Part shown: piece by piece, positions 26,531 to 61,648 of the stretch
How positions within the stretch are numbered: position 1 is the first letter of the stretch
How the letters are laid out: every line of letters starts with the position of its first letter
DNA from: an uncultured Acidobacteriota bacterium
Lineage (GTDB): Bacteria > Acidobacteriota > Thermoanaerobaculia > Gp7-AA8
NCBI GenBank assembly: GCA_963734155.1
Contig: CAVTGG010000014.1
Span: 309,841-373,840, forward strand
Direction: 5' to 3'
DNA: 64,000 bases
The notes under the pieces: model-generated
Seen by the model: the letters and a program-made list of their open reading frames with translations, nothing else
Databases searched by the model: none
What the model was told of the DNA's origin: nothing
Made by a program: the position numbers and the translations under genes

Positions 26531-27821
<1,291 letters not shown>

Positions 27822-31948: not shown

Positions 31949-34770
31949 GAAAAAGTTCGCGCTCGCGCTCGTCCTACTGCAATTCCTTGTCCTCCCCCTT
32001 TCGGCCGCCGATGCGCCGAAGGAATGCACGCTCTGTGTCGGTGTCGTCGCGCCCGACGGCGCGGGCGTTCCGACGCTCAACCGCGTCGCCGAAGCCGACC
32101 TCGCGACCTACGCGCCGGCGCATCCCACTGACGTCGCGCTGGTCGTCGAGTACGCGATCGACGCACAGAAGGACGCGCTGCTGCAGGTCGAAGAGCACAC
32201 CAAAACCATCATCGACTGGGCGCGCGCACACGGTCCGTTCGATTCCCTCGGCGTCACCGTGATTGGTGCCGATCCGGCATCCGCCGCGTATGCGGTCAAA
32301 CGCCTCGCCGTCACCGCGCAAGGCCTCGACGTCGCGAAGCGGATCGTCGTGACGAGCGGCGTGAAGGAGCTGTTCGACAACGGCGCCGGCGGTTACTTCG
32401 ACGCGGTCGTCGTCGATGCCGCGCAGGTCGCAGACACCCTCGCACTCCTTGCCGAGAAAGATCCTTCGAAGAAGATCTTCGCCGTCGTCAACGTCGAATC
32501 GCCGAACGCGATCTTCGATCTCGCGAAAGTCTTCGGCACCGGCGCGACGCGCGCGTACGCGAACGGCACGGTCGACGCGAGCTCGCTCGCGCAGTTCAAC
32601 AAATCGATGACCGGCGACTGGGCCTTCGACTCGACGTCGAAGATCACCGTTCTCGATGCGAAAGGCAACTCGGTCGACATGCCGGTGCTCGGTTTCGTGC
32701 GCGGCGAAGACCTCCGCACGATGCTCATTCCGCGCGGCGACGCAGCCGCGCCGTCGATCCTCGCGCTGCCGGTCGATCGCTACGTGAATCCGCGCCGCGT
32801 CGACGCGGCGGGCGAGCGCGCGATCACCGACACCGGAAAGAAAGGCAATCGCCTGCTCGTCGGCTCGCCGAAGACGACGCTGCCGTACGCGGTGGTCGTC
32901 GACTACGCGGAGAAGCCGAACCGCAACGTGACGAAGGAAACGATCAGCGTCGCGACGGAGCGCGGTATCTCGGTCGAAGAAGTGATCCGCAATCATCAGG
33001 CGTACGACGCCTATCAGGAAACGATTCAGCCGCGCTACATCGCGCGCAACACGACCAAGCTCCGCTTCGACATCGGCACGGGCAGCGATTCGCTCGAGGC
33101 CACGATCGCCGGCGATTACTTTTCGGATCCGAAAGGGCCGCGCCGATTGGGTGTGGTCGGAGTTCCTGATCAACGGCGTGAAGTGGAAGTACGGCCGCAT
33201 CCCCGAGCTGCCGCTGATTCAGCCGGAGAAAGTCACGCAGCTGCCGCTCGACATCCATCTGACGAACGAGTATCGCTACGAGCTCGTCCGGCAGACCGAG
33301 GTCGACGGATATCGCGTGTATGAAGTGCGCTTCGAGCCGCCGCAGAACGCGCCGGAAAATCTGCCGCTGTATCGCGGCACGGTGTGGATCGACGCGCGGA
33401 CGTGGGCGCGCGTGCGGATCTCGATGATCCAGCTGCACCTCACCGGCGAAGTGCTCTCGAACGAGGAGCGCGTCGACTTCGTGCCGTTCTCGCGCGAGAC
33501 GAAGCAGCCGTTGACCGCCGCGGACGCGGCGAAAATCGACGCCCGCGAGCTGATCTGGCTGCCGGTCGAAGTCGGCGCGCAGCAGGTGGTCTCGGCCGCG
33601 GGACGCGCGAACGTGATTCAGCGCGCGACGACGTTCGACAACTTCCGCGTCGAGCCGCAGGAGTTCGACTCGCTGCTCGCCTCGACGTCCGCGTCGGACG
33701 CGCGCATGGTGCGCGAGACCGAAGCCGGTCTGCGTTACCTCGAAAAGCGCGGGGACGGCGAGCGCGTCGTCAAAGAGGGCTTCGACACGTCGCAGCTCTT
33801 CATGCTCGGCGGCGTGCATCACGACGCGGGACTCGAGTTCCCGGTCGTGCCGCTCGGCGGCATCGACTACTTCAATTTCAATCTCTTCAACAAAGGGATT
33901 CAGACGAACGTCTTCTTCGCCGGAGTCGTGGTCGCGGCGAACGCGACGAAGCCGAGCGTCTTCGGCACGCGCACGAACGTCGGCGCCGATTTCTTCGGCA
34001 TCGCGCTGCCGGTGACGAACTCGATGTATCGCGGCGGCGAGGAGCAGGTCGAGGAAGCGGTGAAGACGATTCCGACTGCGCTGACGCTGCGCGCCGGCCA
34101 TCCCGTGCTGCAGTTCGGAAAGATCGACGTGTCCCTCGGACTCGGACACACGTTCTACAAGCGCGGCGAAGAGACGCCCGACAACTACATCCTGCCGACC
34201 GACACATTCCTCATTCAGCCCGGCATCAACGGCACGTACACGCGCCGCGGCTATTCGCTCTCCGCGTACTACGACTACGCGCGACGCACGTCATGGGAGG
34301 CGTGGGGAAATCTCGCCGAGTTCGATCCCGATCAGAAGAGCTACGCGCGCTTCGGCGGCTCGATCGGCAAGACATTCTTCCTGCCGAAGTTCCAGCGCTT
34401 CGGCATCGACCTCAACTATCTCGACGGCAAGCGCCTCGACCGTTTCTCGAAGTACGAGCTCGGATTCTTCGGCGCGCAGCGCGTGCACGGCGTCCGCTCC
34501 GGTTCGGTGCGCGCCGAGCGCGCGATCCTCGGACATCTGTCGTACGGCTTCGTCTTCTCGCAGCAGTTCCGCCTCGAGGCCTTCTACGATCACGCGCTGA
34601 TCGACGACGCGAACGCGGGATTCAAACGCGAGCCGTTCCAGGGAATCGGCATCGCGGGACAGACCGTCGGTCCGTACGGAACGCTGCTGCGGCTGGACAT
34701 CGGAAAGATGATCGGCCGCAACGCGCAGGAGGGGTTCGTGGCGAACGTGGTGTTTTTGAAGTTGTTCTGA
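31947..34770 (+). CDS. large secreted outer-membrane protein (signal peptide, LolA-like middle region, C-terminal beta-barrel ending ...VVFLKLF; apparent frameshift near 33135)
   Basis: The signal peptide is MKKFALALVLLQFLVLPLSAADA. The two long ORFs join across ...DYFSDPKG | WSEFLINGVKW. There is an OMP-type C-terminal aromatic residue. Confidence 0.5.
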
Positions 34771-34825: not shown

Positions 34826-36436
34826 TCAAGGTTGCGGGTTGTTGTTCGCTACGTAGAAGTCCTGCGAGCCGATCTCGTTCGACGTGCCGAACTTGCTCAC
34901 GACGCGCACGGTCAGACGATGCTGCGCATTCACGAGCTTGCGCGTGTCGAACGTGAACGACCAGCCGGACAACCGCGAGTCGACGACGAACGGATACTGC
35001 TCCTGAACGTCGGGCCGCTGCAATCCATAGATCGCATTGCCGACGTAATTGCCATCGACGATCAGCTGCACTTCTTTGACGCCCTGTTCGTTGATCGCCC
35101 AGCCGCGGAACACGACGTCGCCGCCGACATAGTCGTACTTCTGCGGGAACTCGATGAAGCCGGTCGACGGGAATCCGAAGTTGTCGGGCGCGCACTGGAA
35201 CCAGACCGGGATGCCGTCGCCATTCGGCAGATCGGCGAACGTTCCTTCGAGATCGCCGACGCGAATGTGCATCGTGTGATTTCCGGGACGCACGCCGTTG
35301 CTCATCAGCGCGCCGACGTCCATCGTGAAGAAGAAGCCGGCCCGCGGCGCATCGGGATAGGTCGGGTAATACCGCGCCACGTCATATCGCGGCAGGCCGT
35401 AGCAGTTCGCGAATCGCCCGAGGATGATGCCGCAATCGTTCGTCGAATACCAGGAAACGCCGTCGATGAGCAGTTCCGCGTATGCGACGCGGCCGGTGCG
35501 GCCGCGCGTACCGAGGTCGAGCGCCCAGCCGCGGACCGGCGTGAGGTGCGCTTCGGTGCGCACGATCGGTGAAGCGCGCACGGGCTGATTCGTACACGTG
35601 CCCCACAGCACCGCGTCGCGCAACGGCTCATCGAGATAGCCGAACGGCGCGAGGAACGAGTCATTGTTGATGACCTGGATCTGCCGGCGTCCCAGCATGT
35701 TCGACATGCCGAGGCGGTCGACGGCGCGGACTTCGAGAAGATGCACGCCGTTCTCGATCTTGGTCGTGTCGACGTTCGCCACCCATCCGCTCAAGAGCGC
35801 TGCGGGGAAATCGGGATAGCTCGCGCCGACGTCCGGGCGCGGATCGCCGAACATCGCACCCTGAATGATGCCGCCGTCGACGAGCACTTCGATGCGGTTG
35901 ATGCCGTCGAGGTCGGCCGCCCATCCGTTGACCGGGAACGATCCGGTGGCGTTGTACACGGCGGCTTCGTTCGGGATGTCGATGTATCCGAACGGCGCCT
36001 GGTTGATGGAGTTGTTGATGGTGATGGTGCGCCGGCCGAGGAAGTGGATCTGGCCGTTGCTGGCATACACGCGCAACTCGACGGTGTGATTGCCGTTCGT
36101 GAAGCGAGTCGAGCTGAACCCGGTGAGGAATCCGGGACGGGCGGTGTGGATGCCGGGGAAGGTCGGGAAGGCGAGGGCGATGTCGATGCGCGGGAGATTC
36201 AGAACGAAATCGTGCTGATACTGGTCATCGACATAGAGCTCGATCTTGCTGATCTGTGCGACGTCGAGCGCCCAGCCCTGAACGAGAACCATTCCGGACT
36301 GTACGACGTTCGGATCCGGCTTCTCGACGACGCCGATGAATTCCTGTGCGGTGAGTGCGGGCGCAAGAAGCGCGGCCAGCAAGGCGAGAACAAACCCGCG
36401 GGTAACCCATCTCCACATAACCCCAACCTCCAACAC
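34826..36436 (-). CDS. secreted protein with four tandem ~115-aa repeats
   Basis: There is a signal peptide. Each repeat carries GW(A)xDxxGIxxIEVxVDG...RPDV...YP. Confidence 0.5.
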   Translation of the reverse strand: MLEVGVMWRWVTRGFVLALLAALLAPALTAQEFIGVVEKPDPNVVQSGMVLVQGWALDVAQISKIELYVDDQYQHDFVLNLPRIDIALAFPTFPGIHTARPGFLTGFSSTRFTNGNHTVELRVYASNGQIHFLGRRTITINNSINQAPFGYIDIPNEAAVYNATGSFPVNGWAADLDGINRIEVLVDGGIIQGAMFGDPRPDVGASYPDFPAALLSGWVANVDTTKIENGVHLLEVRAVDRLGMSNMLGRRQIQVINNDSFLAPFGYLDEPLRDAVLWGTCTNQPVRASPIVRTEAHLTPVRGWALDLGTRGRTGRVAYAELLIDGVSWYSTNDCGIILGRFANCYGLPRYDVARYYPTYPDAPRAGFFFTMDVGALMSNGVRPGNHTMHIRVGDLEGTFADLPNGDGIPVWFQCAPDNFGFPSTGFIEFPQKYDYVGGDVVFRGWAINEQGVKEVQLIVDGNYVGNAIYGLQRPDVQEQYPFVVDSRLSGWSFTFDTRKLVNAQHRLTVRVVSKFGTSNEIGSQDFYVANNNPQP

Positions 36437-42536: not shown

Positions 42537-45082
<2,546 letters not shown>

Positions 45083-50440: not shown

Positions 50441-53400
50441 ATGCCGAAGGTCTATATCTCATCGACGTTCAAGGATCTCCGCGAGCATCGTCAGGTCGCG
50501 ATCCATACGCTCGATCGATTGGGGTACTCGACGCGTGCGATGGAGAAGTACTTCGCCTCGGACGAACGGCCGCTCGATCTTTGCTTGGCCGATGTCGCGC
50601 AGTGCGACCTTTACGTCGGGATCTTCGCGTGGCGCTACGGGCACATCCCCTCGGAAGGCAATCCCGAAGGTCAGTCGATTACCGAATGCGAATTTCGTGA
50701 GGCAGTGCGTCTCCGGATTCCCTGCCTGATCTTTCTCAGCGACGAGAGTGATCGCTGGCTCGTGGACAGTGCGAACGATCGCGCACAGATCGCACGACTG
50801 CGTGAGGAGCTCGGCAAAACATGCGCATCCTTTGACACACCCGAGAAACTCGGGCTGGAGATCAGCGTTGCGGTCGCCAACTGGGAGCGCAACCCCGACT
50901 TTCGGCGCTACCTGCAGGCGTTGGCGACCGAGTTTGCCGACCTTCCGGAGCTGCCGGGACATACGAGAAACCTGGCGATCAGCGAAATCATGACGATCGC
51001 CGTCAACCTGAATACCACCGCAGCGCGTGAGCAACCCTCGATCGTTCCCCTGCCGCAGGCCGTCGCAGAACAACGCGCCCTGCTCGTCGTTGGCGAGGGA
51101 GGAATCGGCAAGTCGACAGCGCTGCGATTTCTGACATATCACCATGCACGCTCGCGCCTGGAGGCCGAAGCCAACGGCGCGGACCTGAAGACGACGCTGA
51201 TCCCCATCTACATCCAGCTGCGCGGCGAGCGAACGGATCTTCGAAAGCAGTTATGGACGGCGCTGCAGCGGCCCGATTTTCATTGCAGCCGCGAGCTCTT
51301 CGATCGATGGCTTGCTGAACAGCCGTTCCTCCTGCTCGTCGACCGGCTCGAGGACGTAAATGTGAGATCGATCCTCGAAGAGCTCGCCGAATTGCTGCAG
51401 CATGCAGCACATGCGCGGATCGTGGTGGCCAGTCGACCACATCCGGCACTCAAGGATTCACCCTGGTCTCACGCGGCGCTTCAACTTCCAAGCGATGCCC
51501 GGCTTGCGGCGTTCTTCAGGGCGCTGCTCGGAGCGCAACGTGGCGGCGAGCTGTTCGACATGCTCGCACATCACGGTCTCCTCGAGCCGTTTCGCCGGCC
51601 GCTGTTCGCGCGTCTCCTCGCGCTGAGCTCACTGGAGTTGCTGCAACAGGAGCGCCTCACGCCGGCTTCGGTATTCCAGGACGTCATCGAACGTCGATTT
51701 CTGACTGAGTGGGAACGACCCGATGATGCACACAACCAGCATGCGATCATGCAGGACTTTCTTGCGCGTCTTGCTCACCGCATGATCGCGGCGAACACCG
51801 ACAGCGTCTCAAGCGATGAGGCACTGCTCGACGCGCGCAGCACGATCACCGGGCGCGGTCTCCTCCCGGACGTGCGCACACTGCAGAACGTTATGGACTG
51901 GACGATGCGGCACGGGCTGCTGACACACGTCGACGGGCAGCTCCAGTTCTGGCATGCGACGTTCCGCGATTACTTTGCAGCACTCTGGCTCGAGCGGCAT
52001 GCGAACCTGTTCACCGTTTACCGCCGCAGCTGGAGCCCACGATGGCACGAATGCCTGGCCTACTACTTCGGTTTGCTCCAGGGCCGGCAACTGCAGCGAG
52101 CAGTGCGCGTTCTGCTGCTCGGCCTCCGCGTGAACATCGCGATCCTGCATTTCAAGCCGTCCCCGGACTCGTCAGGGCGGCTGCTGCTCGTATTGCGATG
52201 CCTGGTGCAAGCCGGCACCGGCGGCAGGCGATGGCACAATGACGTTCTGCGCCGGCTTCCCACGACATTCAGCTACTTCTACCTGAGCGGCGCACCGACC
52301 CCAATCACGTATTCCTATCGACGCGACGGTTATGACCCGCATCATTATCTTTGCGATCTGATCGGGCAATTACGGTCGCCGGAAGGCTTTGCGTACCTCG
52401 ACAGGGTGCAAGCGGATCTCGATGTTGTCGCACCGGGACTATTGCACAGCCCCGATCATCAGGTCATCGAACGCCTGGCCCAGGCACTCATCGACCAGCC
52501 TGACGATGAACGCCACCGGTCGGGCAACGAAGTGCTGAGTCATCTGCTTCTCCGGTCGCGTGATCCTCGTTGTTTTGCCGCGCTTCGTCGCGTCGCCTGT
52601 GACCTGGGTGCAACACCGAGAGCAAAACTTCTGGGCTTACTGGCGCACACCATGATCTGGTATCGCCACGATATCGATCTCCGACAGGTACTCGGCGATG
52701 AATGGGGCGAACTGCTCATCGGATTCACGTTGCATGATGACGACGCGAAGGTGCGGACTGCGGCGGTAACGTTCCTTCGAGAGCTCGGCCCCACTCCGGA
52801 ATATCCAAGCGAATCCCTGGCCCCACGGGCTCGTCAAGCGTTCCTGCATGCGTTGACGGACACGAATCCGACGATACGTGACACGCGCCCTTGCGGCATT
52901 TCGCATTCCGGAGCTCGAGCATCACCTGGAGATCCTCCAGCGATTCCTCGCCGAAGACGATCTCGACGTCGTGTTCCGTGCGCTCTATCACTTCCGTCAT
53001 TCTGCCGAGCCCCGTCGCTTTTGCGGGGCGACGCTGAAGGTTCTTCGCAGGTACTCGACCGATGCCACAAGGCCTTTAGCCGCAGTTTTTTACAAAGGCT
53101 TGTGCGGCGAGGAGCATGCTGCCGCCGATCTGCCGCGCCGATCAGTGGCCTTTCTCATGAGCAGCGTGTTCTGTGGAAAGTACAAAGGACTCACGCTGTA
53201 CGCCATCCTTGCGTTGGGCACTCTCGCGGGCGAGTGGGCAGTGCCGTTCCTGACGGCGGTGTTGAGGAGTGAGGCATGGGAGGACACACGCTCCGCCGCC
53301 CTCGGGATCCTGGTCAAGCTTCTCGGCGTCCAGGCAGGCGACCTGGTGGCTGAGATGCTCGCCGACCCGTCGGCGCTGATGCGCGGAAGCGCCGCGGCCG

Positions 53401-53633: not shown

Positions 53634-55176
53634 ATGCAGCCAGCGCAGACGGTCCTCGTTCTCGATTTCGGATCGCAATTCACCCAACTGATCGCCCGGC
53701 GGATTCGCGACCATCGCGTCTACTCGGTCGTGCATCCGTGCGATCTCGCTCCCGACAAAATCCGCGAGCTCGCGCCGACGGCGATCATCCTCAGCGGCGG
53801 GCCGCAGTCGGTGTACGCCGAGAGTGCGCCGTACTGCTCGCGCGAAGTGTTCGAGCTCGGCGTGCCGATCCTCGGCATCTGCTACGGCATGCAGCTCACC
53901 GCGTACTTCCTCGGCGGCAACGTCGAGCCGGTGCTCGAGCGCGAATACGGGCGCGCGGAAATCGACGTCATCCGCGAGTCGCCGCTGTTCACCTCCACGC
54001 CGCCGCATCAGCGCGTATGGGCCAGTCACGGCGACAGCATCCTCGCGCCGCCGCCCGGCTTCGAGGTCACGGCGTCGTCCTCGAGCGCGCCGATCGCCGC
54101 GTTCGAAAACCGCGAGCGCGACTGCTACGGGATTCAGTTTCATCCCGAAGTCACGCACACCGAGGCCGGCGGGCAGATCCTGAAAAATTTTCTGTTCGAC
54201 ATCGCCAAATGCGAGCCGACGTGGGACCTCGGCGACTTTCGCAAGCGAAAAGTCGACGAGATCCGCAAGCAGGTCGGCGATCGCCATGTCATCGCCGCGG
54301 TCAGCGGCGGCGTCGACTCCTCCGTCGCTGCGCTGCTCGTCGGCGAAGCAATCGGCGATCAACTCACCGCGATCTTCGTCGACAACGGCGTGCTGCGAAA
54401 ACACGAAGCGATGCAGGTCGTCTCGCGCCTCTCCGAAGGCCTCGGCATGCACATCGTCGCCGTCGACGCACGCGAGCGCTTCTACGAGAAGCTCGCCGGC
54501 ATCGAAGAGCCGGAGACGAAGCGCAAGCGCATCGGCAACGAGTTCATCGCCATCTTCGAGGAAGAAGCGAAGCGGATTCCGAACGTCGAGTTCCTCGTGC
54601 AGGGCACGCTCTACCCCGACGTCATCGAGTCGGTCTCGATCAAAGGACCGTCCTCGGTGATCAAGACCCATCACAACGTCGGCGGGCTGCCGGAGAAGAT
54701 GGGGCTGAAGCTCATCGAGCCGGTGCGCGAGCTGTTCAAGGACGAAGTCCGCCAACTCGGCGATCGAGCTCGGACTCGAAGAGGAGTTCGTCTGGCGGCA
54801 TCCGTTCCCCGGGCCCGGCCTCGCCGTCCGTATCCTCGGCGAAGTCAACGCCGCGCGCGTAGAGATCCTGCAGAACGCGGACGAGATCGTGATCGACGAG
54901 ATCCGCAAAGCCGGCCTGTATCGCGAGATTTCGCAAGCCTTCGCTGTCCTTTTGCCGGTGCGGAGCGTCGGCGTCATGGGCGACGAGCGCACCTACGAGA
55001 ATGTGCTTGCAATCAGGGCAGTCACGACCACGGACTTCATGACCGCGGACTGGTACCGGATGCCGCACGACCTGCTCGATCGCATGGCGCGGCGGATCGT
55101 GAACGAGGTTCGCGGCGTCAATCGCGTCGTCTACGACGTCTCGTCGAAACCTCCCAGCACGATCGAATGGGAATGA
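53634..55176 (+). CDS. guaA: GMP synthase (glutamine-hydrolysing) (apparent frameshift near 54775)
   Basis: The GATase Cys is in GICYGMQ. The ATP-PPase motif is SGGVDSSV. The C-terminal dimerisation domain ...[20 protein letters not shown]... is in a second frame. Confidence 0.85.
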
Positions 55177-55340
55177 GTTTCCGAAATTGGAGTCAAAAAA
55201 ACGTGCACGCGGGACGTTCCGGACTTATAGTTACGCATCCGCGTCTAGTCAGATCATCTCGGACGGCGTAACCAATACGCCAAAACATCAGGAGTCACAT
55301 CCCCTGTGGATGTCCTCGTAGTCAAGGAGGAGGCAACGAT

Positions 55341-57050
55341 ATGGTGGTAAATCGGTCCCCCATCTTCAGGTTGATTGTCGCCGCAGTTCTGATCGCGGTC
55401 CCGATGGCGGCGTTCGCAGCGCCCGCCGGGAAAGCGGTCGGCGGCGGTTCGTACATTGAATGGCAGTTGTCGGCCGGATATGAGAAGGTCATTCTCACCA
55501 TTTCCGACCCGACGGGTGAGGTCTCCACGCGTGAGTACGCGGCCGGCAAACCGGTCTCGCTCAGCCTGAAAGACCTGCCGACTGCCGGCGACGGCAGCTA
55601 CACCTATCAGCTGCTGCTCGTGCCGAAGGTTTCGGCGGCGTTGCAGGCGCAGTTGTCGAAGGCGCGCGAAGCCGGAAACGACGCCGCGGCCCGCGCTCTG
55701 CTCCGATCGGCAGGCCTCGCCGAGCCGAATGTGGTGAGCGGCGCGTTCCTCGTCACGAACGGCTCGATCGTCGCGCCGGATCGCGCGGAAGAAGGCATCG
55801 GCGGCGGAACGGTGCAGGCGAACTCGATCCGCGAAGAAGGTCCCGCGAAGCTGGGCGGCGGAACGTCCTCGACGGCTCGCCCGGGCACGCCGGTCGTCAA
55901 CGACCAGGTCATTCCTGACGATCTCATCGTGCAGGGCAGCGGCTGCTTCGGCTTCGACTGCGTGAACAACGAGTCGTTCGGCTTCGACACGATCCGTCTC
56001 AAAGAGAACAACCTCCGCATCAAGGCCGAGGACACGAGCACCGGCAGCTTCCCGACCAACGATTGGCAGCTGACGTTCAACGACTCCGCGAGCGGCGGCT
56101 CCAGCAAGTTCTCGGTGGAAGACATCACCGGATCGCGGGTTCCGTTCACGATCACGGCCGGCGCCGCGACGAACTCGATGTTCGTCGACAGCACGGGCCG
56201 CCTCGGCCTCCGCACCTCCACTCCGGTCCTCGATCTCCACATCAACACCAGCAACACGCCGGCGATCCGCCTCGAGCAGAACAACTCGGGCGGCTTCACG
56301 GCGCAGACCTGGGACATCGGTGCGAACGAAGCGAACTTCTTCGTGCGCGACGTGACCGGCGGCTCGAAGCTCTCGTTCCGCATTCGTCCGGGAGCGCCGA
56401 CGAGCTCGATCGACATCTCCTCGGATGGTGACGTCGGCATCGGTACGGCTTCGCCGAGCGCGGCGCTGCACGTCCTCGACAGCACCAGCGCTGCTTCCGA
56501 TATCGTGCTCGCTGAGAACAACAACGAGGCCCGCATCTCGATCAAGAACAACGGCACGTCTCAGAAGTACATCCTCGGCGTGAACAACACCAACCCGGGT
56601 CTGTTCTTCATCTCGAAGGACGCCGGCGGCGGCACGATCGTCGAAGTCAACCAGCGTCTCGACGGCGGCGGCGTTGCCTCGGTGAAAGTCAACGGCAGCG
56701 TGCAGGCCACGAACGTGGTGTTCAGTTCTTCGCGCGAGCTGAAGAACGAGATCGACCTCGTCGACGGCAAAGAGACGCTTGCGCGTCTGACCGCGATGCC
56801 GATCGCGCACTGGTCGCTCAAGACCGACGAATCCGCGACGAAGCACGTCGGCCCGATGGCCGAGGACTTCTATGCGGCGTTCGGAGTCGGCAGAGACAAC
56901 AAGACCATCTCCGTCACCGACGCGAACGGCGTCGCGTTCTCTGCGATTCAGGGTCTCGCGCAGACTCTGAAGGAGAAGGACGAAGAGCTCACCCAGCTGA
57001 AAGCGCGCATGGCCGAGCTCGAGAAGCTCGTCAAGGCGCAGCAGCAGTAA
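55341..57050 (+). CDS. secreted fibre/beta-helix protein with C-terminal peptidase-S74 intramolecular-chaperone (autoproteolytic tail-fibre chaperone) domain
   Basis: A GGAGGAGG SD and a signal peptide are present. The C-terminal block SSRELKNEIDLVDGKETLARLTAMPIAHWSLKTDESATKHVGPMAEDFYAAFGVG...ELTQLKARMAELEKL is characteristic of the S74 chaperone domain. Confidence 0.65.
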   Translation: MVVNRSPIFRLIVAAVLIAVPMAAFAAPAGKAVGGGSYIEWQLSAGYEKVILTISDPTGEVSTREYAAGKPVSLSLKDLPTAGDGSYTYQLLLVPKVSAALQAQLSKAREAGNDAAARALLRSAGLAEPNVVSGAFLVTNGSIVAPDRAEEGIGGGTVQANSIREEGPAKLGGGTSSTARPGTPVVNDQVIPDDLIVQGSGCFGFDCVNNESFGFDTIRLKENNLRIKAEDTSTGSFPTNDWQLTFNDSASGGSSKFSVEDITGSRVPFTITAGAATNSMFVDSTGRLGLRTSTPVLDLHINTSNTPAIRLEQNNSGGFTAQTWDIGANEANFFVRDVTGGSKLSFRIRPGAPTSSIDISSDGDVGIGTASPSAALHVLDSTSAASDIVLAENNNEARISIKNNGTSQKYILGVNNTNPGLFFISKDAGGGTIVEVNQRLDGGGVASVKVNGSVQATNVVFSSSRELKNEIDLVDGKETLARLTAMPIAHWSLKTDESATKHVGPMAEDFYAAFGVGRDNKTISVTDANGVAFSAIQGLAQTLKEKDEELTQLKARMAELEKLVKAQQQ

Positions 57051-57072
57051 TCGCTCCGTCACGCAACTGAAA

Positions 57073-57102
57073 CGGCCGGCGGAAACGCCGGCCGTTTTTT
57101 TT
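57073..57102 (+). terminator. rho-independent terminator
   Basis: A CGGCCGGCG-GAAA-CGCCGGCCG stem-loop is followed by T8. Confidence 0.7.
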
Positions 57103-57120: not shown

Positions 57121-59244
57121 TTGCTGCACACCCGGGCCGTTGTCTCTCTCGCCTTTCTGACGCTCCTCCTCGCCTGCCGTCGCTCCGAGCCGGCGTTTGA
57201 TTTCGCCGCGAATTTCGACCAGGCATCGCTGACATCGGAGACCTCGCGCATCGACTTCGGCACAAGCGATGGCCGCCGGTTTCTGCTGGAAGGGTGGTCG
57301 ATCGACGAGACGTGGGGCAATTCCGAAACGACCGCGGTGTGGGGCGTCGGATCGTCGTCACGCCTCTTCTTTCATCACTTCGGAAGCGGCGCCGTCACGC
57401 TCACCTTCCACTGCATTCCGATCTGGTTCGATGCCCGCCAGCAGAGCATTCGCCTCCTCGTGAACGGCACACCGATCGATCGCATCACGCTCGGCGCAGG
57501 CTTCCGCACGTATCAACTGACCGTTCCCCGCGCGGCACTCCGAAAGGGCGCGAACGAGTTGCGCATCGAATACGCGATCACGCAGCAGAATGCGCCGGCC
57601 GGCCGGCAACTCGCGGTGGCCTGGGACTGGATGACGTTCAGCGTCGCGCCGCCAAAAGGCGTCGCGGAGCGCGACGACGACACGATCCGGCTGCCGGCGC
57701 GCACGCAACTCACCTACCTCGCTCCCGTCGCGCCGCGCTGTTCGATCAAGCTCGATCGGATCTACAGCGCGGGCGAAGCCTCGCTGCGGATCGCGATCGG
57801 CCGCTCCGATGCCGTTCCGCCGTCGGTGCACATTCTCGGCAAGCAGCGCGACGTGGAGATCGCGCTGCCGGTCCGCAGAGCCGCGCTGGCGCAAATCGAT
57901 TTCATGACCGGCGATCGCGACGTGAAACTCATCCGTCCCCGCATCGAATGCGAGAACGCCGCCGTCCCGCCGGCTGGTCCGGCGCCGTCCCGGCGCCGCC
58001 CAAATGTCCTGATCTACCTCGTCGACACCCTGCGCGCCGATCACCTCGGCGTCTACGGATACGCACGCCCGACTTCTCCGCACATCGACGCCTTCGCGCG
58101 CGACTCCGTCGTCTTCACCAGCGCCATCGCCCAATCGGGGTGGACCAAGACCTCCGTCGCGTCGATCCTCACCGGGCTCGTGCCGTTTCATCACGGCACC
58201 ATCGACCGCGACGACGCGCTTCCACCGTCGATTCCCACGCTGCCGATGATGCTCGCGCGCGCCGGCTACGCGCGCTACGCGGCCATCGCCAACGGCAATC
58301 TCAGCCCCGCGTTCGGGCTGCAACGCGGATTCGAGCCGTATCGCTATCTTGCGTCCGGCGAATACGAAGCCGGAGCCGTCGCCGGCGTGGTCGTCGACGC
58401 GTGGCAGCAGTGGCTCGACACGCGCCGCGGCGCAGAGCCGTGGTTCGCGTACCTGCACACGATCGACCCGCACGATCCGTATCACGCGCCGGAGCCGTTC
58501 ACGAGCCGCAGCACGATCCCGATCACCGGCGTCGGCGAGATCCCCGCGTTTCTGCAAACGCATCACGGCGTGAGCGCCGAACAGTTAGGCGCGGACCTCA
58601 TCGACAAATACGACGCCGAGATCGTCTACACCGACGCCATGTTCGGCCGCGCCATCGAGGATCTGAAGCGCCGCGGTCTCTACGACGAGACGCTCATCCT
58701 CTTCGCCTCGGACCACGGCGAGGAGTTTCTCGATCACGGCGGCTGGGGACACGGCCATTCGCTCTATCGCGAGCTCCTGCACGTACCGCTGATCGTGAAG
58801 TTTCCCCGCAATCGCCACGCGGGGATGATCGTGAAGACGAACGTGCAGCACGTCGACATCGTGCCGACGGTGCTGCAAGCCGCGGGAGTGGCGATTCCGA
58901 AGAACCTCGACGGCATGCCGCTGATGGAGGTCCCGGGCGCAGCCGAGCGCCGGATCGCGTCGTACCTGCGCATGGATCGGCACGACGTCATGAGCGTGAT
59001 CTACGGCGAGCGGCAGTATCTCGTGAATTCGACGTTCGGAACGCCGGTGGAATCGCTGCTGCGTTTCGCGCCGTCGAGCACGGACCGCGAGCGGATCTAT
59101 CTCGCGCAGACCGACGTGTGGCGAAAGGACCTTCGGCGGACGCTCGTGCGTCTGCGGCAAGAGTCGCGGCGCGTCGCCGCGCCGCAGGTGCCGCTCGAAG
59201 GCGAGCTCGCAAAGCAGCTGCGCGCACTCGGCTATTTGCGCTGA
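57121..59244 (+). CDS. sulfatase-family (alkaline-phosphatase superfamily) lipoprotein
   Basis: There is a lipobox (LLLAC). The sulfatase core is NVLIYLVDTLRADHLG ... LILFASDHGEEF ... GWGHGHSLYRE. Confidence 0.8.
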   Translation: MLHTRAVVSLAFLTLLLACRRSEPAFDFAANFDQASLTSETSRIDFGTSDGRRFLLEGWSIDETWGNSETTAVWGVGSSSRLFFHHFGSGAVTLTFHCIPIWFDARQQSIRLLVNGTPIDRITLGAGFRTYQLTVPRAALRKGANELRIEYAITQQNAPAGRQLAVAWDWMTFSVAPPKGVAERDDDTIRLPARTQLTYLAPVAPRCSIKLDRIYSAGEASLRIAIGRSDAVPPSVHILGKQRDVEIALPVRRAALAQIDFMTGDRDVKLIRPRIECENAAVPPAGPAPSRRRPNVLIYLVDTLRADHLGVYGYARPTSPHIDAFARDSVVFTSAIAQSGWTKTSVASILTGLVPFHHGTIDRDDALPPSIPTLPMMLARAGYARYAAIANGNLSPAFGLQRGFEPYRYLASGEYEAGAVAGVVVDAWQQWLDTRRGAEPWFAYLHTIDPHDPYHAPEPFTSRSTIPITGVGEIPAFLQTHHGVSAEQLGADLIDKYDAEIVYTDAMFGRAIEDLKRRGLYDETLILFASDHGEEFLDHGGWGHGHSLYRELLHVPLIVKFPRNRHAGMIVKTNVQHVDIVPTVLQAAGVAIPKNLDGMPLMEVPGAAERRIASYLRMDRHDVMSVIYGERQYLVNSTFGTPVESLLRFAPSSTDRERIYLAQTDVWRKDLRRTLVRLRQESRRVAAPQVPLEGELAKQLRALGYLR

Positions 59245-60266
59245 TCGAGCTCGCGCAGTTGATCGATCGTGATGCGCACGGCCTGCGGCTGCGTTTCCGC
59301 GAGCAGCGCGTCGAGCTCCGCGCCGCCGCCGGCGATCATGTCGTAATGAAAGCGCCGCGATCCGAGCCACGCCGGTGAGACGGCGTCGACGACGTCCGCG
59401 GCGAAGCCGGCGAGCCGCAGCGATTCCGCCAGGCCGTGATCGTCGCCGATGATGAGGATCGAGTCTCTCGCCATCGCGTCGCGCGCGGCGATGATGCGCT
59501 CCAGCCTCTTCGCGAGCGGCGCATCGGGACGGACGCGGAGGAACGCGCGCCAGCGATGGTGAAAGCGCGGGTGATTGATCGCCAGTAACGCGCGGCTTCC
59601 CTCCTCGGAACCGGACGCGCCGCCGGCATGCGTCACCACCGACGCGGGCTCGTACCAGATTTCCCAGCCGCGCGCGGCGAGGCGGAGACAGAGATCGGCA
59701 TCTTCGAAGTAGGCGATGTGAAACCAGGGATCGAAGCCGCCGGTCTCGTGAAAGAGCCGCGTGCGCACGGCCAGGCACGCGCCGGTCACGTAGTCGACGC
59801 GGCGCGCGAACGCGTACTCCGGCTTGTCCGGATCGTCGCCGGCGCCGTAGTGCATCGCCCAGCCGTCATGGCCGAGGAGCGCGCCGGCATGATCGATGCG
59901 GCCGTGGAGATCGACGATCTTCGCGCCGGCGACCGCGTTCCGCGGATGCTCTTCGAGCCGGCGGCAGAGAGGATCGAGCCAGTTCGGAGAAACGATCACG
60001 TCGCTGTTGATGAAGACGACAATCGGCGCGCGCGCGCGGGCGGCGCCGAGATTCGCGGCTACGCCGAAGCCGAGGTTCGCGTCGTTGAAGATGATCGTCG
60101 CGTTGCGCACTTCGTCGCGCAGAAACTCGCGCGTGCCGTCGGTCGACGCGTTGTCGACGACGATCAGCTCGTACGGAACCGCGGTGTGCTCGGCGATGGA
60201 TTGGATGCAGCGCCGCGACCATTCGAGCGCGTTGAACGTGACGACGACGAGACTGGCGCGGATCAT
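59232..60266 (-). CDS. GT2-family glycosyltransferase
   Basis: The GT-A N-terminus is SLVVVTFNALEW...ELIVVDNASTDGT with a DxD-like INSDV. Confidence 0.8.
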   Translation of the reverse strand: MIRASLVVVTFNALEWSRRCIQSIAEHTAVPYELIVVDNASTDGTREFLRDEVRNATIIFNDANLGFGVAANLGAARARAPIVVFINSDVIVSPNWLDPLCRRLEEHPRNAVAGAKIVDLHGRIDHAGALLGHDGWAMHYGAGDDPDKPEYAFARRVDYVTGACLAVRTRLFHETGGFDPWFHIAYFEDADLCLRLAARGWEIWYEPASVVTHAGGASGSEEGSRALLAINHPRFHHRWRAFLRVRPDAPLAKRLERIIAARDAMARDSILIIGDDHGLAESLRLAGFAADVVDAVSPAWLGSRRFHYDMIAGGGAELDALLAETQPQAVRITIDQLRELDQRK

Positions 60267-61648
60267 TTTCGCAATCGCGCGAGCCAGCTCTGCACGCGCA
60301 ACGCGGCGGAGACAATGCGCGTGCGCAGCACGAGGCGATGCCGTTCGTTCTCCGCCGTCACCGTTTCCAGTTGCGCGGAGGCGCGCCCGACATCCACTCG
60401 CGCGCTCGTCAGGTCGCGACGGACCTGTTCGAGTTGATCCTGCACGCGGTCATGCGCGGCCTCGATTTCGCCGAGCCGCGTTTCGACCGCATCCGCGCGC
60501 GCCTCCGCCTCCTCCGCGCGTTGCTCCGCAAGGCCGCGTCCGTGGTTCGCGTCCGATTCGTTTCGCAGCAACTCCGCGTTCCGGATCACGAGACTCTCGA
60601 CGTCGAGGTCGCCCTCGCTGAAGCGATTCACCGCCTCGGCGAAGATGGCGCGTTCCATCCGCAGCTGCTGATCCGCGCGCACCTCGTCCACCTCGCGAAT
60701 TCGCACCGAGCGCGCAATCGCCGCGAGCTCGGGCGAGGATCCGAGATAGGCAGACGCTTGCGCGAGTGCGCTGACGATGTCTTCGCGCGTCGCGTGCGAG
60801 TCGATGATGAAAATGTTCTGCCGCACGCGGCCGCGCAGCTGCTGCGCCTGCGCTTCTTCTTCCGGCGTGGTCGCGATGACGACGACGTCGTGCGCGGTCT
60901 CGGATGCCGTCCATGTCGGATCGACGACGATCGGACGCCCGAACGGCGGATACGCGCCGATCGCGCGCAACTGCCTCAGGCGCCGCTCGAAGACATCGGC
61001 CGGCAGCGGCGTGACGCGAGCGTCCGCGACCACGATCCAATACGAGCCCTCCGGATCGCGGCCCGGAACGATCAGCGGCGCGCCCTGCAACTGTTGGAGA
61101 TGCGTCAGCTCCAGTGACGGGTAATGCGGCTTCGCCGCGGCGCGCAACTCGTCCTCGAACTGCTCCAGCGTCCAGTCGTTCACGTGGTACTTGTTGATGT
61201 GCGAGCCGTGATACTTCGGATTCGGGAATGACGTGATCAGCAGCGGCGCGGCGGCGAAGGCGAGGCGCAGCGCCTGCGGCGCATCGTGAAGATGCTCGAT
61301 GACTTCGAACATCACCGCCGCGTCGGCAGGCGGGAGCGGCTGCGCGCAGAGATCGTGTCCGTACGTCAGCGTCGCGCCGCCCGGCCACTGCGGCCTCTCG
61401 TGCGATTCCGGCTCCCACAAATCGAAGCCCTGCACCGACGCCGCGACCCACGTCAGCATCTCGCTGCCGTACCCGGTGCCGCATCCGAGGTCGAGCACGC
61501 GCATGCGCGGCACGAGGTGCTGCGCGAACGCGTAGCGCATGCAGTGCTCCGCGATCAAACCGGCGTTCGGCATTCCCGGAAACGCGCGCTCCGGCAAATC
61601 GAGATCGGGTCCGCCGAGGGTTTGCGACTCGCGCCAATCGACACTCAT
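60263..61648 (-). CDS. class I SAM-dependent methyltransferase with C-terminal coiled-coil
   Basis: The SAM motif I is VLDLGCGTGYG. The C-terminal ~100 aa are helical and Glu/Arg-rich. Confidence 0.7.
   Translation of the reverse strand: MSVDWRESQTLGGPDLDLPERAFPGMPNAGLIAEHCMRYAFAQHLVPRMRVLDLGCGTGYGSEMLTWVAASVQGFDLWEPESHERPQWPGGATLTYGHDLCAQPLPPADAAVMFEVIEHLHDAPQALRLAFAAAPLLITSFPNPKYHGSHINKYHVNDWTLEQFEDELRAAAKPHYPSLELTHLQQLQGAPLIVPGRDPEGSYWIVVADARVTPLPADVFERRLRQLRAIGAYPPFGRPIVVDPTWTASETAHDVVVIATTPEEEAQAQQLRGRVRQNIFIIDSHATREDIVSALAQASAYLGSSPELAAIARSVRIREVDEVRADQQLRMERAIFAEAVNRFSEGDLDVESLVIRNAELLRNESDANHGRGLAEQRAEEAEARADAVETRLGEIEAAHDRVQDQLEQVRRDLTSARVDVGRASAQLETVTAENERHRLVLRTRIVSAALRVQSWLARLRK

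Follow-up and report, generated by a model that had tools for sequence, protein, structure and literature searches.

Within a 64,000-nucleotide stretch of DNA from an uncultured Acidobacteriota bacterium of the Thermoanaerobaculia (assembly GCA_963734155.1, contig CAVTGG010000014.1, positions 309,841 to 373,840; hereafter the window), one gene encodes a 569-residue protein in which a signal peptide and a region of fibre-like repeats are followed by a C-terminal Peptidase_S74 domain. We regard it as probable, at about 0.65, that this is a resident, vertically inherited Acidobacteriota gene for a Sec-exported, S74-processed homotrimeric fibre that works like the S74-class mosaic adhesive trimer (MAT) proteins of Bdellovibrio. 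The sequence gives direct evidence for the S74 chemistry and for the layout of constant and variable parts; that the protein trimerises, is cleaved, reaches the cell surface and acts as an adhesin is proposed by analogy with the MATs.

The fibre gene, as read from the sequence, is an open reading frame (ORF) at 55341..57050 on the forward strand with an ATG start. Its length, start and strand agree with the first-pass annotation of this DNA, whose end at 57102 takes in the terminator. Both expression signals described there are present: a strong Shine-Dalgarno sequence, AGGAGG, lies 8-9 nt 5' of the ATG, and an intrinsic terminator of the gene's own follows it. A search for a sigma-70-type promoter of the fibre gene found none. 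Domain borders were drawn from 20- and 74-homolog full-length alignments, per-column statistics and an AlphaFold2 monomer model with its per-residue confidence (predicted local distance difference test, pLDDT), which together give the following layout.

55326..55335, forward strand: Shine-Dalgarno region (AAGGAGGAGG), read from the sequence, 5' of the ATG at 55341
55341..55418, forward strand: signal peptide, amino acids (aa) 1-26, Sec/SPI type with an AFA/AP site, assigned by inspection of its n/h/c pattern
55419..55772, forward strand: N-terminal domain, aa 27-144, Ig/FN3-like beta-sandwich plus helical hairpin, moderately conserved (identity 42-48%)
55773..55895, forward strand: low-complexity, gap-rich linker, aa 145-185 (pLDDT <40; 18% identity, 32% gaps)
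55896..56468, forward strand: near-invariant fibre core, aa 186-376, two ~80-aa repeats, from the 74-homolog alignment
56469..56726, forward strand: hypervariable third repeat, aa 377-462, distal tip of the predicted mature fibre (17% mean identity)
56727..56945, forward strand: Peptidase_S74 intramolecular chaperone domain, aa 463-535, from the Pfam match and the conserved dyad
56727-56729 and 56742-56744, forward strand: predicted nucleophile Ser463 and predicted general base Lys468 of the S74 domain
56946..57050, forward strand: C-terminal helix, aa 536-569, and stop codon; predicted trimeric coiled coil, from the model and coiled-coil PDB matches
57069..57098, forward strand: intrinsic terminator, a 13-bp stem with 9 G-C pairs and then a T-run, read from the sequence

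The identity of the C-terminal domain is supported by several searches. The first-pass annotation had assigned this end to Peptidase_S74 and proposed a profile search as a check; when run, Pfam PF13884 matched aa 463-514 with 28.0 bits against a gathering cut-off of 22 (E 2.6e-6). The 'SSRELK' block at its start corresponds to S463-S464-R465-E466-L467-K468; S463 and K468 do not vary across 74 homologs, and a further set of 31 keeps S, R and K throughout. The S74 catalytic dyad motif is cited as 'SDxxxK' (PMC10769870). SSRELK fits the Ser-x4-Lys spacing of this dyad with Ser at the second position, where Asp is usual, and aligns to ADLRAK of the chain of myelin regulatory factor (MyRF) and to SGIEYK of an L-shaped tail fibre. 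In a fold search the S74 domain matched the ICA domain of MyRF, and the protein has both the ICA fold and the C-terminal helix of Peptidase_S74, the helix being modelled over residues 525-568 at pLDDT ~90. Together, the Pfam match, the invariant Ser-x4-Lys and the MyRF ICA fold match leave the S74 assignment standing. In a relative from Tahibacter (locus L052), Peptidase_S74 is matched with 46 bits. The likeness to phage fibres seen at first pass is also real: besides the S74 match, the protein hits tail-fibre and virion-structural families in PHROGs, and its best matches in BFVD are phage S74 tail fibres that span both fibre and chaperone. An NCBIfam search with the fibre protein returned zero matches, and PADLOC had no match for the fibre or for the DUF4062 ATPase and the sulfatase encoded nearby.

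The remainder of the protein combines a constant and a variable part. The signal peptide (MVVNRSPIFRLIVAAVLIAVPMAAFA/AP), judged by eye, shows the n/h/c pattern and an AxA site with no lipobox Cys; its 'AAFA' motif is kept in homologs in the 20-homolog alignment, and the monomer model places a helix over residues 7-23. In the fibre region, aa 186-462, S, G, N and T together account for 40% of residues, and three tandem ~80-aa repeats of one type are present, as the earlier description of Gly/Ser/Thr/Asn-rich repeats would have it. Repeats 1 and 2 are 31% identical to each other (E 2e-15), and each is closed by a loop motif, G-x-[LV]-G-[LI]-x-T-x-x-P-x-x-x-L-H. These two repeats make up the core, which shows 85% mean identity, an entropy of 0.42 bits and zero gaps across 74 homologs; a Pfam scan found no family that covers these 190 aa. 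Two core cysteines five residues apart, Cys202 and Cys207, are invariant, consistent with a disulfide formed outside the cytoplasm. The tip is modelled at pLDDT ~75 over aa 390-440. As a side observation, the core (55896-56468) contains two triplets, the invariant D248-S249-A250 and D283-S284-T285 with D283 and S284 invariant, which we take to resemble the Bacteroidetes O-glycosylation sequon D-(S/T)-(A/I/L/V/M/T); genes for a PMT_2 GT-C and an ArnC-like GT2 recur beside the fibre genes of related loci.

The repeats are homologous to the solved beta-helical fibres of MAT proteins. Searches of the PDB matched the fibre to 8OND (Bd2133) with E 5e-7 from the single sequence and 8e-9 from the profile; further profile matches were 8OJN (7e-5) and, more weakly, 8OL4 and 8OML, and the searches also returned the MyRF ICA domain and a phage long-tail-fibre tip. 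The fibre loop motifs GRLGLRTSTPVLDLH and GDVGIGTASPSAALH align with their counterparts in Bd2133. In Bdellovibrio bacteriovorus, 21 MATs have been described by Caulton et al. 2024 (PMC10769870), each with a signal peptide, a conserved ~130-aa N-terminal domain, a trimeric beta-helical fibre with capping loops and an exchangeable tip. An S74 end is found in 13 of the 21; Bd3182 cleaves itself at the catalytic Ser, a Ser-to-Ala change abolishes cleavage, and surface display and glycan binding have been demonstrated for other MATs (PMC10769870). MAT-like proteins elsewhere were attributed to predator-associated taxa, in a list that does not include Acidobacteriota (PMC10769870).

The present fibre resembles the S74 subgroup of MATs, typified by Bd3182, in being chromosomal and phage-like and in carrying a signal peptide, here with the AFA/AP site assigned by inspection and kept in homologs. 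Likewise shared are the homologous beta-helix repeats, whose loop motif in the MATs reads G-x-V-G-I-x-T-x-x-P-x-x-x-L-H, the C-terminal S74 domain with a Ser-x4-Lys dyad, and mosaic C-terminal tips that occur across the family in S74 and non-S74 versions. The two differ in size (569 aa compared with ~1,000 aa for MATs) and apparently in the N-terminal domain, which here is a beta-rich, Ig/FN3-like unit of ~118 aa and in MATs a domain of ~130 aa, the two being compared by description only. Unlike MATs, the fibre core is nearly invariant across genera, and the gene occurs singly or in small tandem arrays, in fixed housekeeping slots and usually beside a glycan island. MATs serve a predator, whereas the host of this fibre is not a known predator; and the fibre is known from sequence alone, whereas cleavage, trimers and surface display of MATs have been shown by experiment.

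Other S74 systems share less with the fibre. In the K1F endosialidase, the T5 L-shaped fibre pb1 and virion proteins of N4-like phages, a domain matching in S74 sequence and fold directly follows a trimeric fibre or beta-helix. However, only the S74 part of phage fibres matches at the BLAST level and the core is absent from viral collections; moreover, phage fibres are encoded in a virion gene module, whereas the fibre gene lies outside any such module and specifies a Sec signal peptide. MyRF, a eukaryotic membrane-bound transcription factor, shares with the fibre only the chaperone domain (ICA, PDB 7DC3).

These phage affinities raise two alternatives: the gene could have been left behind by a prophage, or it could still supply a phage or tailocin with tail fibres from a place in the chromosome. 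An S74 domain combined with fibre repeats is typical of phage tail fibres, and phage proteins are 34-42% identical to the S74 domain, but matches in phage genomes are confined to aa 452-545; none of 50,697 phage genomes contains the core, and its motifs found zero relatives among 2.9 million IMG/VR viral contigs. Virion proteins seldom carry a signal peptide. The genes identified in the 64-kb window have housekeeping or envelope roles, and we found no phage structural, tailocin or integrase genes among them; the stand-alone position reported at first pass is correct, and no phage module for structure, lysis or integration surrounds the fibre gene. The fibre gene has no close viral relatives and no atypical composition: its GC content of 0.63-0.645 and its third-position GC content (GC3) of 0.86 are like those of its neighbours.

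The chromosomal setting points the same way. A scan of one genome per species identified at least 525 loci with fibre relatives; the neighbourhood counts given here and below refer to the best 79 of these, which hold 89 fibres, and their genes were called by a crude ORF/GC3 heuristic with which small genes and start sites are unreliable. Neighbour clustering showed that the order mreC-mreD-PBP2-rodA-S4-HU-guaA-fibre is kept in 17 loci, so that at least 17 genomes hold the gene in the same housekeeping slot, and two close metagenomic relatives, P0004 and P0011, occupy it as well. In slot loci, ftsZ-ftsA-murC often follows directly after the fibre gene on the opposite strand. Other slots of the family lie after rpsB-tsf-frr-SpoU, carbamoyltransferase-GDSL and FG-GAP/ASPIC-TPR genes, and none is phage-like. 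Across syntenic loci, amino-acid identity is 0.71-0.88 for the fibre core and 0.80-0.90 for GuaA, and identity at four-fold sites is 0.58-0.79 for the core and 0.52-0.76 for guaA. Since the core is conserved like GuaA while synonymous divergence is similar, the sequences indicate old vertical inheritance under strong purifying selection and no recent transfer. Recent horizontal spread had been considered as a cause of the core conservation and was rejected, because synonymous sites have diverged like those of guaA. A phage or tailocin origin of the present gene is thus highly improbable, and the prophage remnant offered as an option at first pass is rejected on the conserved housekeeping synteny, the GuaA-like divergence, the typical composition and the lack of the core in viral collections.

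Automatic annotation already covers the very large family to which the resident fibre belongs, and the impression of a singular oddity is not borne out. With the core alone as query, 4,724, 2,473 and 1,444 cluster representatives were found at E<=1e-3, 1e-10 and 1e-30, respectively (1.84 billion searched). The best full-length matches are 49-90% identical, and existing names among the matches include 'tail fiber domain-containing protein [Thermoanaerobaculia bacterium]' and 'endosialidase-like protein'. Hosts are mainly metagenome-assembled genomes of Thermoanaerobaculia, Holophagales, Vicinamibacteria and Pyrinomonadaceae; cultured Tahibacter species and other Lysobacterales, for example Rhodanobacteraceae, also carry the family. 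Literature searches turned up nothing published on acidobacterial S74 fibres. In 13 of the 79 loci, the fibre gene stands in a tandem array of two or three paralogs whose tips differ. In the window, tblastn with the fibre found no paralog. C-termini are S74 in 65 of the 89 fibres, and 23 carry non-S74 modules of three types, for none of which Pfam has a family:

NS-A: loci L002, L035, L040, L043, L044, L067 and L074
NS-B: loci L022, L053, L054, L071, L073, L078 and L082
NS-C: L065:7786-9417 and L078:1761-3569

A likeness of NS-A to phage 'Peptidase_G2'-type ends was considered, and Pfam did not confirm it. NS-B is marked by a conserved block, 'GGSFIDDGxTLNVPDYVF...HLPxVPSA...LLEKVEELTLY', with a coiled coil after it. 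The exchange of modules is seen most directly in P0011, which is 81% identical to the window's fibre in the N-domain and 87% in the core and then continues into an unrelated NS-B C-terminus; the likeness ends right after the second loop motif, with a breakpoint at aa ~378. Across the family, a conserved end (core identity 85%) is thus joined to exchanged C-terminal tips (17%) in S74 and non-S74 versions. In four giant proteins, P0125 (1701 aa), P0126 (3409 aa), P0127 (4164 aa) and P0128 (4928 aa), the fibre core is repeated 3-4 times; domain scans covering P0125 and P0126 also showed 2-3 S74 domains, dockerin domains and a matrixin (M10) protease domain. The giant proteins may be polyproteins that cleave themselves into several fibres, or fused gene calls.

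On the mechanism that we propose, the fibre protein would be exported by Sec, and the S74 domain with its helix (aa 463-569) would act as an intramolecular chaperone that nucleates trimerisation of the three preceding beta-helical repeats. Autoproteolysis by Ser463 and Lys468 would then remove the S74 domain. In endosialidase, cleavage occurs before the catalytic Ser; an equivalent cut before Ser463 would yield a mature chain of ~45 kDa (aa 27-462; 44.9 kDa as computed) and a released fragment of 11.7 kDa. The Ig/FN3-like N-domain and the core would form a constant, cell-proximal part for attachment or presentation, and the third repeat, exposed by cleavage as the distal tip, would carry ligand specificity, most probably for a glycan. 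A glycan-directed surface fibre is the likely identity of the product on this proposal. Of the functions suggested at first pass, a domesticated surface fibre or adhesin remains the best reading, with surface use itself drawn by analogy from the Bdellovibrio MAT fibres; for an 'S-layer-like component' we found no support.

Several points weigh against this reading. Only a monomer was modelled, with the core at pLDDT ~55, so that the trimeric beta-helix is inferred from homology; the low value is expected for an intertwined trimer modelled as a monomer. The S74-only profile gave weak matches to the PDB (E 0.05-0.09), and full-length profile and fold searches were more informative. The proposal also does not account for passage of the Sec-exported fibre through the outer membrane or for its retention. 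The MAT N-terminal domain is reported to have no PDB homologue (PMC10769870), whereas the N-domain here is a generic Ig/FN3 unit, and anchoring may follow another logic here. A simple 'shaft' role does not explain why the core is better conserved than the N-domain; conservation of this degree, at the level of GuaA, suggests a conserved binding partner or very tight packing between chains. Finally, a single copy in the window stands against the large repertoire of Bdellovibrio.

The copy number also bears on whether the fibre recognises prey or competitors, as a MAT-like fibre used by soil bacteria in contact-dependent antagonism or predation. Homology to MAT fibres with the same mosaic logic, the presence of the family in Lysobacterales such as Tahibacter and Rhodanobacteraceae, and the tandem arrays with different tips all fit such a role. 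It nevertheless appears unlikely here: there is one fibre compared with 21 MATs in Bdellovibrio, neither the window annotation nor PADLOC revealed a killing or secretion apparatus near the gene, and we know of no predatory lifestyle in Thermoanaerobaculia.

A further proposal links the putative surface fibre to the variable genes that follow it. In the window these begin directly after the fibre gene, opposite the housekeeping neighbour that defines the slot:

57121..61648, mixed strands: start of a variable glycan-related island, with a sulfatase-family lipoprotein (+), a GT2 (-) and a methyltransferase (-)
53634..55176, forward strand: guaA, upstream neighbour defining the slot, split by a frameshift

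A glycan island adjoins the fibre gene in ~25 of the 79 loci and in at least three different upstream contexts, nearly always on the 3' side (GT2 22/23, DegT 13/15). Its genes encode ArnC-like GT2, DegT, WbqC, hexapeptide acyltransferase, sulfotransferase, PMT_2/ArnT-like GT-C, Ugd, epimerase and methyltransferases. All seven NS-A fibres lie beside a sulfotransferase island, compared with 3 of 68 others (Fisher 6e-8, uncorrected for phylogeny). P0004 has the window's tip type (77% identity after the core) together with the same sulfatase-GT2-methyltransferase island, and P0011 has the swapped module together with a partly different island, located between the fibre gene and ftsZ. These patterns suggest that the fibre tip is matched to a self-made glycan, by binding it, processing it or being glycosylated. 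On this basis the fibre could be coupled to the adjacent island, its swappable tip or C-module recognising the cell's own surface polysaccharide for self-anchoring, kin-specific adhesion or polymer processing, the last in the manner of phage S74 tailspike depolymerases and the hydrolases of exopolysaccharide operons. We hold this coupling to be tentative and on balance doubtful. The association of modules with islands was counted without allowing for shared ancestry, the slot could be a mere hotspot for variable surface genes, and the island genes of the window fall into clusters different from those of the recurrent island. Orientation and spacing of the island vary, and the strong terminator after the fibre gene implies that it forms no operon with the island. 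No catalytic glycanase motif or family was detected in the fibre with Pfam and NCBIfam. In its general form, a two-part cassette of a glycan and its cognate fibre in Acidobacteriota and some Lysobacterales, with an exchangeable tip or C-module matched to an exchangeable surface-glycan locus, is likewise a speculative possibility; its slot is often located between the elongasome/guaA cluster and the end of the dcw (ftsZ) cluster.

The sulfatase-family protein (57121-59244, forward strand) begins MLHTRAVVSLAFLTLLLAC, with a lipobox-like signal, and has a ~290-aa N-terminal extension without a Pfam match; it is also the first gene after the fibre in L080, L081 and L082. The guaA interruption is a single frameshift near 54755-54765, the first 370-odd residues lying in one frame and the C-terminal part in the next. 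The gene is intact in close relatives (513-543 aa), so that here either the assembly contains an indel or the gene has recently become a pseudogene.

Elsewhere in the window, the genes 5' of the fibre gene are mreB, mreC, mreD, PBP2, rodA, an S4-domain gene, HU, a DUF4062-AAA gene and guaA, and those 3' of it are the sulfatase-family gene, the GT2, the methyltransferase and one gene without a family; the first 33 kb include genes for an SNF2 helicase, a JmjC protein, a HipA-like kinase, FabD, BacA, RNase J and a dynamin-like GTPase. The DUF4062 gene (50441-53272, forward strand), between HU and guaA, encodes a 943-aa protein with an AAA_22/ORC-CDC6-like ATPase, whose N-terminus matches two PHROGs families of unassigned function; it is not at that position in L080, L081 or L082 and may be a STAND-like NTPase or a defence gene. 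When the window ORFs without a family were scanned against PHROGs, no structural phage family was found; the only strong hit among those tested was a 350-aa ORF on the reverse strand (26531-27580), 28 kb from the fibre gene, which matches PHROG 19509 (function not assigned) with E 2e-50. Three more large ORFs of ~480-540 aa lie at 33151-34770 (forward), 34826-36436 (reverse) and 42537-43970 (forward). Two of them carry bacterial Ig-like domains (Big_7; Glucodextran_B/Big_6) and the third has no family; the ORF at 42537 is a conserved neighbour (cluster c26), found 5' of mreB in related genomes.

To date, the predator Bdellovibrio is the one bacterium in which chromosomally encoded, secreted trimeric fibres with S74 processing have been characterised, and experiments there have already established the design principle. 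The fibre gene is not a one-off: it shows the same design in abundant soil Acidobacteriota, whose fibre family is very large and uncharacterised and is kept by purifying selection at a fixed housekeeping locus. As cultured carriers exist, such as Tahibacter aquaticus DSM 21667, the family is open to testing. The part most worth following is the putative fibre-glycan cassette. If real, it would serve self-recognition, self-anchoring or glycan remodelling, with the receptor-binding logic of phages turned on the cell's own polysaccharide. If the link between tip and island holds, the fibres would offer new glycan-binding modules and, in bacteria that are mostly uncultured, a readable genomic marker of surface-glycan specificity.

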